Shown here: in pieces, positions 1 to 1,387 of the stretch
Position numbering within the stretch: the stretch's first letter is position 1
Layout: each line of letters starts with the position of its first letter
Assembly (NCBI GenBank): GCA_000004985.1
Contig: GG739245.1
From: Naegleria gruberi
Taxonomy: Eukaryota
DNA length: 2,775 bases
Direction: 5' to 3' (one strand)
The notes under the pieces: generated by a model
What the model saw: only the letters and a program-made list of their open reading frames with translations
What the model was told of the DNA's origin: nothing
The model's database searches: none
Position numbers and translations under genes: made by a program

Positions 1-1087
1 CAATTTGAGTAGTAGACTTGTAATTAGTGATTCCTTCGATAGTTACAAATAGTCCATGAATGGTTTCTTGAATATTAGTGAATTTTGTTTGTTTCAATTT
101 TGAACCTTCTTGGTGTTGGCTCATTAATTCTTCTACAGTCAATGTCTGAAATAAATCAACACTTTTGTCTTTGTTAATATTGTAAAATTGTAATGTTTTT
201 CCATCATGTGAAATACAGGAAGCTAATATTGGTTGACAAATTGAAATTCTCTTAAAAAAATAACCATTAAAAGTGATATCATTCTTTTCAATATTTGAAA
301 TCAATTGAGCAACAACTTGAATCTCTGTCTTTCCATTTCTAATATCGGCTTCATCTCCATTCAACACAATCTCTTTCAAAATTGTTTCGGTTTTGTAATC
401 ATACACTACATACACATTCCTAAATCTCAATACCATACTATTTGCGAGAAAAATCAATGAATCACATCTTTTAGATTCAAATTTCTCCAAATTAAATCTT
501 TTTTCAAAAGATAGAAATAAAAAAGTCACTGGTAATTTTCTGTAAACTGTAAATCGAAATTCCTTTCCCCAAACAATACAAAAAGAATCGTCTAAACTTT
601 GTAAAGGAATTCTTCTTGTACAAGAAATCAATTCTCCTGTTTCTTTCTTTTGGAAAATGGAATTTCTTTCCTTTAGTGTAAAATCCAAATCAGATCCAGT
701 CTTCTGGAATGCGTTACCCTCAAATTTAATTGTCAGCTCTTTTCCTAAAGCTGAAAAACTGTATGAAAAGAGTTGCACAATAGAATTCGCACCTTCACCT
801 TGTAAACTTTTATCAATTACTGTTGAGTAATGAACAAGCAACATTCCTTTTTCTTCATGACATTCAATTTTTTGAATGGAACAAGTTTCGGGTGAATTTT
901 CTTGGAATAAATGTTGGTGGTGAAAAACTTCACTCCGATCATAGTGAAACCACAAAATAATTCCCATATTTGTTCCACAAATAACTTGCTGATATTTTGA
1001 ATCAAAGGTTGAACAAGTAATCGAGCCATGTTGTGCGGAATCAAAGTGAAAACATTGGCAAGTTTTCATTAGTGGACCTGATGTCAT
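1..1087 (-). CDS. 3'-truncated protein-coding gene (N-terminal 362 codons; ORF continues past position 1); hypothetical protein, possibly WD-like/beta-propeller N-terminus
   Basis: I reverse-complemented 1..1090 by hand. The frame whose first codon bases fall at p mod 3 = 1 has an ATG at 1087..1085, preceded by an in-frame TAA at 1093..1091. It has no stop down to position 2; every TTA/CTA/TCA on the plus strand falls out of frame. The start context is gtaaaaaATGa (A at -3, A-rich). Codon use is Caenorhabditis-like: Gly is GGA in 12 of 19 codons, Arg is mostly AGA, Pro is mostly CCA, and Gln is mostly CAA. The protein starts MTSGPLMKTCQCFHFDSAQHGSITCSTFDSKYQQVICGTNMGIILWFHYD... A 362-codon stop-free run is very unlikely by chance in DNA this AT-rich. 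The supplied ORF track missed it, apparently because it only lists ORFs with both ends inside the window. Function is not recognised. Confidence 0.72.
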   Translation of the reverse strand, partial: MTSGPLMKTCQCFHFDSAQHGSITCSTFDSKYQQVICGTNMGIILWFHYDRSEVFHHQHLFQENSPETCSIQKIECHEEKGMLLVHYSTVIDKSLQGEGANSIVQLFSYSFSALGKELTIKFEGNAFQKTGSDLDFTLKERNSIFQKKETGELISCTRRIPLQSLDDSFCIVWGKEFRFTVYRKLPVTFLFLSFEKRFNLEKFESKRCDSLIFLANSMVLRFRNVYVVYDYKTETILKEIVLNGDEADIRNGKTEIQVVAQLISNIEKNDITFNGYFFKRISICQPILASCISHDGKTLQFYNINKDKSVDLFQTLTVEELMSQHQEGSKLKQTKFTNIQETIHGLFVTIEGITNYKSTTQI

Positions 1088-1387
1088 TTTTTACTAATAA
1101 TTACAACGCGGTCACGTTTAATAAAAATCTTATTTTTGCACAGTTTGATGGAATTTATTTTTCATGTGTTTTCCATCCAAATAATAATAATAGTATTGAG
1201 AGCATTTTATCTCTAAACACAAATAAAAATTAATTACACAGATTTAGCATGCTCCAAAAACAAACTGTTTTGTTCCAAATATTTAATTATTCCATCTGTT
1301 ACTGCTTTCCCTCTTTATTTCACTTGAATCTTGGGTTGTTGGTGGTGTTGATGTTGGTTTCTCTGATGAAGGTTCTTCTTACATTTT

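Follow-up and report, generated by a model that had tools for sequence, protein, structure and literature searches.

Does the long open frame at the left end of a 2,775-nucleotide stretch of contig GG739245.1 belong to a real gene, and if so, what kind of protein does it encode and in what kind of genome? The stretch as a whole is called the window below, and the frame in question runs along its minus strand from base 1087 down to base 2. The answer favored here, with a probability of roughly 85%, is that bases 2-1087 of the minus strand are the 5' portion of a protein-coding gene that is genuine and restricted to its lineage, and whose remainder lies beyond the left edge. An earlier note, made from the sequence, had picked out the same bases as a truncated minus-strand gene with a 362-codon stop-free frame. 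It had also called this the only convincing coding frame in the window and pointed out that it was absent from the accompanying track of open reading frames (ORFs).

Length and codon usage of the minus-strand frame

When the six frames of the whole window are listed from stop to stop, the longest stop-free run is found on the minus strand at 2..1090 and spans 363 codons. The runners-up are a run of 179 codons on the plus strand (1899-2435) and one of 101 codons on the minus strand (2473-2775). Reading along the minus strand, a TAA is followed by a single Lys codon, an ATG and then 361 more sense codons down to base 2, where the left edge of the window is reached without a stop; the gene is thus truncated by the window. 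The partial coding sequence at 2..1087 (minus strand) comprises 362 codons including the ATG, and its translation begins with MTSGPLMKTCQCFHFDSAQHGSITC. Its assignment draws on the translation, open-run statistics, codon-position composition, synonymous bias and a leave-one-out codon model.

A frame of this length is not readily produced by chance. The base composition of this strand predicts 0.082 stops per codon, in line with the value of about 0.08 in the earlier note, and the probability of 362 stop-free codons is about 4e-14. When the whole window was shuffled 2000 times, the longest six-frame open run averaged 82 codons and reached 175 at most. The remaining five frames of 1..1093 carry stops at 5.8-8.8%. 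Set against these figures, the truncated gene proposed in the earlier note holds at the coordinates it gave, and the open-run statistics together with the codon bias described below bear out its view that no other frame in the window is convincingly coding.

The gene is missing from the ORF track because the listing leaves out ORFs that run off either end. As a result, the one real gene of the window does not appear in the track, and other windows are likely to lose ORFs at their edges in the same way. Two short track ORFs, at 817..1044 (minus strand, TTG start) and 1033..1233 (plus strand, GTG start), do overlap the frame as the earlier note described; both are artefacts and, as it had advised, should be ignored.

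The genetic code was also considered. The ciliate and code-4 genetic codes were rejected, since the frame is without any stop codon and no reassignment is needed. TAA, TAG and TGA are all absent from the frame, glutamine is written by 22 CAA or CAG codons and tryptophan by two TGG codons, and the standard code therefore suffices. Under the ciliate code, in which TGA is the only stop, the frame would be lengthened upstream by just 7 codons.

Composition within the frame follows the codon. Guanine-plus-cytosine (GC) content is 0.37, 0.32 and 0.23 at the first, second and third codon positions, and the share of G falls from 24% at the first position to 13% at the third. Isoleucine is encoded by ATT 27 times, by ATC three times and by ATA only once (1/31). 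Counted over all phases of the ORF strand, ATA nevertheless occurs 11 times, and outside the ORF each strand of the window has 25-34 of them. Cysteine is written as TGT ten times and as TGC once, AGA provides 9 of the 12 arginine codons, and GGA provides 12 of the 19 glycine codons. Among the leucine codons are TTG (12), TTA (11), CTA (4) and CTT, the last of which is used once in 31. The synonymous skew in the frame exceeds what AT-richness alone accounts for. An A-rich start context and a preference for ATT, GGA, AGA, CAA and GAA, features of the kind that the earlier note had called nematode-type, are common to many AT-rich eukaryotes. The near absence of CTT from the leucine codons differs from Caenorhabditis, where CTT presumably ranks among the commonest, and the protein searches described below found no homologue in nematodes or in any other organism.

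The coding signal extends over the whole frame. A codon model was applied in leave-one-out manner to 17 overlapping test segments of 40 codons, each time after training on the rest of the ORF. Frame 0 beats both shifted frames in 17 of 17 cases. Because the model favors frame 0 throughout, the frame contains no intron-like or decayed stretch, and an intron or decayed segment within it was rejected on the grounds that the coding signal is kept in every test segment. The visible part is real coding sequence in a single exon. It combines the two general marks of a coding gene, namely an open frame far beyond chance expectation and a frame-specific bias over its full length.

One could still regard the frame as a chance open run, or as a very recently dead pseudogene that no longer has a function, for the searches described below found no homologue of it. 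This explanation is hardly credible given the probability of about 4e-14, a length twice that of the longest run in 2000 shuffles, and a frame-specific codon bias that stays consistent from one end to the other.

Relatives and predicted structure of the product

The 362-residue product was compared with a wide range of profile, sequence and structure collections. Pfam, searched with the whole protein and with its two halves at an expectation value (E) of up to 10, yielded only DACND (E=0.046) and DUF4056 (E=0.12), neither of which came near its cut-off. Nothing in NCBIfam rose above the cut-off, and PHROGs gave one weak match at E=0.0053, which was disregarded and whose family has no known function. 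Among the sequences of the PDB there was no significant match, and only a short ubiquitin-like motif was picked up. A word-indexed search of 5.8 billion protein clusters produced 1312 candidates, none at E<=0.01, and HMMER, run exhaustively over 1.84 billion cluster representatives, found no protein at E<=0.001. In an exact-product look-up, neither the partial protein nor three small ORFs had a record.

The nucleotide collections agree with this picture. A 34-mer taken from the ORF has no exact occurrence in viral, metagenome or prokaryote contigs, and pattern scans combined with tblastn against metagenome contigs, viral contigs (IMG/VR) and prokaryote contigs (185,579 species genomes) revealed no relative. 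A tblastn search of phage and plasmid collections was likewise without a match. Judged by its sequence, the product is an orphan restricted to its lineage; the libraries searched contain nothing detectably related to it. The earlier note had left the family unassigned, and the profile and sequence searches assign none either. It had also named a lack of homologues, if combined with a lack of transcription, as grounds for giving the gene up; the first half of that pair is what the searches returned.

Within the protein, the most distinctive region is the N-terminus. The first 80 residues (848..1087, minus strand) hold six cysteines, at residues 10, 12, 25, 37, 69 and 76, and seven histidines, at residues 14, 20, 48, 56, 57, 59 and 77, giving 13 Cys/His residues compared with 9 in the other 282. 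The enrichment described in the earlier note therefore stands, with the correction that one cysteine is found at residue 69 and not at residue 70. No zinc-finger family of Pfam matched the whole protein or its two halves, and no canonical Cys/His spacing was recognized. Elsewhere the composition is rich in serine, leucine, isoleucine, phenylalanine, threonine and lysine and poor in alanine, proline and tryptophan, as is typical of an AT-rich genome. The N-terminus is not hydrophobic, and since the mean Kyte-Doolittle hydropathy over 19 residues peaks at only 1.2, there is no membrane helix.

Structure prediction gave models of low confidence. The predicted local distance difference test (pLDDT) score from AlphaFold is 35.6 for the whole fragment and 47.8 for residues 215-340. 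The model consists mainly of beta-strand hairpins up to about residue 240, and residues 225-320 are modelled as a beta-beta-alpha-beta-beta-beta segment. Structure searches with the models returned nothing meaningful.

Some segments had suggested WD or beta-propeller strands to the author of the earlier note. On this reading, the N-terminal region would be a WD40-type or other beta-propeller, and the protein a scaffold such as a subunit of a tethering or coat complex. The low-confidence model offers some encouragement, being almost entirely beta-strand hairpins over residues 1-240. In addition, the segment ITCSTFDSKYQQVICGTNMGIILWF recalls what we take to be the inner strands of the first blades in propeller-plus-solenoid proteins, a resemblance that serves as a lead only. 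Against this, no WD40 or other propeller-blade profile of Pfam matched at E<=10. A propeller would also be expected to show four to eight tandem blades of roughly 40-60 residues as internal repeats. A comparison of the protein with itself by BLASTP (word size 2, E<=10) gave the identity alignment alone and thus no internal repeat, although very divergent blades could escape such a search. With a pLDDT of 35.6 and no structural match either, the likeness proposed in the earlier note is not upheld, and a propeller is an unlikely description of the N-terminal region.

The ubiquitin-like motif mentioned above comprises residues 287-313 (ILASCISHDGKTLQFYNINKDKSVDLF; 149..229, minus strand), which align with residues 44-70 of ubiquitin without reaching significance. 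The match to mono-ubiquitin has E=0.55. Polyubiquitins give E-values down to 3e-12, which are inflated in that one stretch of 22-27 residues is scored nine times. A Smith-Waterman alignment with ubiquitin scores 49; of 3000 shuffles, 6 did as well, and the comparison had been picked post hoc from 177,635 sequences. The Pfam ubiquitin family does not match residues 221-362. When the model of residues 215-340 was compared with the PDB by Foldseek, no hit reached E<=0.001, and none of the 50 best was ubiquitin-like. The motif may be regarded as a lead and not as a finding.

Taken with the gene model, these features would describe a product of more than 362 amino acids that is soluble and probably intracellular, with neither a signal peptide nor a membrane span. 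It may act as a binding or scaffold protein rather than an enzyme, and its N-terminus could conceivably coordinate a metal such as zinc. Both suggestions are weak ones, drawn from the Cys/His-rich N-terminus and the beta-rich body.

Start site, flanking sequence and host genome

The most likely start codon is the ATG at 1085..1087 (minus strand; Met1), which is placed from sequence and translation and lies in the A-rich context gtaaaaaATGa. A further in-frame ATG at 1067-1069 encodes Met7. Translation would begin at the first of these and, less probably, at the second. An in-frame TAA occupies 1091..1093 (minus strand), two codons before the ATG. It sets the limit of the N-terminus, provided that no exon from farther upstream is spliced to a site past the TAA. 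As for such splicing, the earlier note had proposed ttattag as a candidate acceptor; it ends in TAG, and the usual nematode acceptor is CAG.

Upstream of the start, the AT-rich flank at 1094..1210 (minus strand) is the presumed promoter and 5' untranslated region, and the gene would be transcribed leftwards from it. Within this flank, the T/A-rich sequence tttttattaaa is located about 30-40 nucleotides upstream of the ATG. A GC-rich island, acgcggtcacg (1106-1116), also stands out from its AT-rich surroundings at 19-29 nucleotides before the ATG; it might serve in regulation or in the core promoter.

Beyond the gene, the window offers little sign of coding. Its GC content stays between 27 and 39% throughout, and bases 1094-2775, or about 1.7 kilobases, contain no convincing ORF. 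Scans of the window for transfer RNAs and Rfam families were empty. Six neighboring frames had no match in Pfam, and concatenated pseudo-ORF pieces from the neighboring sequence found none in a protein search.

This sparse setting bears on whether the frame might instead be a prokaryotic, phage or giant-virus gene of an AT-rich genome. Such an origin would fit an intron-free frame of 1086 nucleotides and a GC content of 31%. However, the adjacent 1.7 kilobases without a convincing ORF are incompatible with the coding density of such genomes. There is no ribosome-binding site either: a Shine-Dalgarno-like purine run is lacking before the ATG, where the context is gtaattattagtaaaaaATG, and sigma-70-like promoter sites and sites resembling intrinsic terminators are no commoner in the window than in shuffles. 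Both observations favor a eukaryote. Moreover, nothing related was found in NCBIfam, the 185,579 prokaryote species genomes, IMG/VR, phages or plasmids, and PHROGs contributed only the match at E=0.0053. AT-rich bacteria, in addition, seldom avoid ATA. It is accordingly very improbable that the gene is prokaryotic or viral.

The remainder of the window contains several kinds of repeat. A perfect 15-nucleotide inverted repeat, TAGACTTCCGGAAAA and TTTTCCGGAAGTCTA, occupies 1707-1721 and 2440-2454, its arms being 718 nucleotides apart, and each arm is followed inward by AAAAAGGCGCC. By a rough estimate, about 0.02 perfect 15-nucleotide pairs are expected by chance in a window of this size. The interval 1707-2454 looks like an element bounded by terminal inverted repeats, similar to a miniature inverted-repeat transposable element (MITE). 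Inside it lie the 179-codon plus-strand run (1899-2435), which is rich in phenylalanine and leucine, has a non-coding look and scores about zero by the ORF codon model, and a hydrophilic minus-strand frame at about 2028-2300 with one internal stop. No piece of the frames within 1707-2454 has a homologue.

A second MITE-like structure, of about 270 base pairs, lies at 1315-1587. Here, a 26-nucleotide inverted repeat with 85% complementarity is found at 1315-1340 and 1562-1587, with a near-palindrome at 1380-1415 in the center. Smaller repeats occur as well. Three tandem 11-nucleotide units, AAAAGGCGCCT, AAAAGGTGCCT and AAAAGGTGCCT, make up 1771-1803; related copies of AAAAAGGCGCC appear at 2411-2422 and, in weaker form, at about 2630-2646. 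Between 1616 and 1697 are overlapping palindromes built on TTTCACAAAT and ATTTGTGAAA, together with a (CACAAA)3 microsatellite at 1655-1672.

At the right edge, the minus-strand frame that is open over 2473-2775 reads NPVLNPINVVPKKGSAEYRFILDLRKIND at 2668-2754, including the segment NPINVVPKKGSAEYRFILDLRKIN, and resembles the fingers motif with which the reverse transcriptases (RTs) of retroelements begin. Its sole PDB match is to residues 56-84 of the human immunodeficiency virus 1 (HIV-1) RT at E=0.67, which is not significant, although the position is the one expected for the fingers subdomain. The RT-like similarity ends after about 45 residues and is not followed by an RNase H or an integrase. 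The frame has no Pfam match and gave no word candidates in the protein collection. Given where the similarity ends, the piece is probably a truncated or decayed scrap of a retroelement.

With so many repeats in the vicinity, it is natural to ask whether the frame itself belongs to a mobile element, as the protein of an unrecognized DNA transposon or retroelement that is expressed for the propagation of the element. The inverted repeats flanking 1707-2454 and the pair at 1315-1340 and 1562-1587 lend this some weight, as does the RT-like scrap on the strand of the gene, and mobile-element proteins are often orphans. Nevertheless, the ORF is not enclosed by any inverted or direct repeat within the window. 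Between it and the RT-like piece lie 1.5 kilobases that include other repeats, no RNase H or integrase follows that piece, and no transposase, integrase, RT, gag or other family of this type was detected in Pfam or PHROGs. Mobile elements are usually multi-copy and widespread, yet neither a second copy nor a relative was encountered in any DNA or protein collection. A mobile-element origin for the frame is improbable.

A cellular gene in a eukaryote is the reading that remains favored. The host most likely has an AT-rich (about 31% GC), standard-code genome of the eukaryotic nuclear type, because a single window combines low gene density and the standard code with MITE-like repeats and a retroelement scrap.

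The gene among known systems

Several points weigh against a genuine lineage-restricted gene. Since the frame has no homologue, the case for the gene is built on its sequence rather than on conservation, the ratio of nonsynonymous to synonymous substitution rates or transcripts. The only grounds for a eukaryotic origin are gene density, repeats and codon usage. Nothing speaks positively for the functional guess, given pLDDT scores of 35.6 and 47.8 and empty fold searches. Finally, it is unusual for matches to be missing for every part of a window, and this leaves open an unsampled lineage. The searches in question covered the 34-mer, the protein frames, the RT-like piece and the pseudo-ORFs, and no match was obtained in any collection searched.

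That last point can also be turned around. Because the product and the window match nothing in about 15 billion predicted proteins or in the contig collections, the gene might found a new protein family, possibly with a new fold, in a eukaryotic lineage that is absent from public collections. This is a tentative extension of the gene model, and one that is doubtful at present. In a more modest view, the locus adds one more orphan gene to the many that turn up when eukaryotic genomes are newly sampled, each of them unremarkable on its own. What sets it apart is that very large collections contain no match to any part of the window, suggesting a lineage that has been poorly sampled.

Three known systems invite comparison. 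WD40 and other beta-propeller scaffolds differ from the product in that the latter is without a profile match, a repeated blade or a structural match above noise. What the two have in common is a predicted beta-rich structure over the first 240 residues and a few strand-like segments with a hydrophobic-x-G-x pattern. The ubiquitin-like beta-grasp differs as well, since mono-ubiquitin is matched only at E=0.55, Pfam gives no match and Foldseek finds no ubiquitin fold. The likeness is confined to the alignment of residues 287-313 (DG+TL..YNI.K) and to the beta-beta-alpha-beta-beta-beta arrangement that the low-confidence model gives for residues 225-320.

The third comparison is with the lineage-specific orphan genes of eukaryotes. 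A difference exists here too: none of the bases in the window has a match in any collection searched, and the term orphan may therefore reflect an unsampled lineage. Like those genes, the frame at 2..1087 has no homologue or recognizable domain, and like them it presents a long intact ORF, a clear codon-usage signature and a normal start context.
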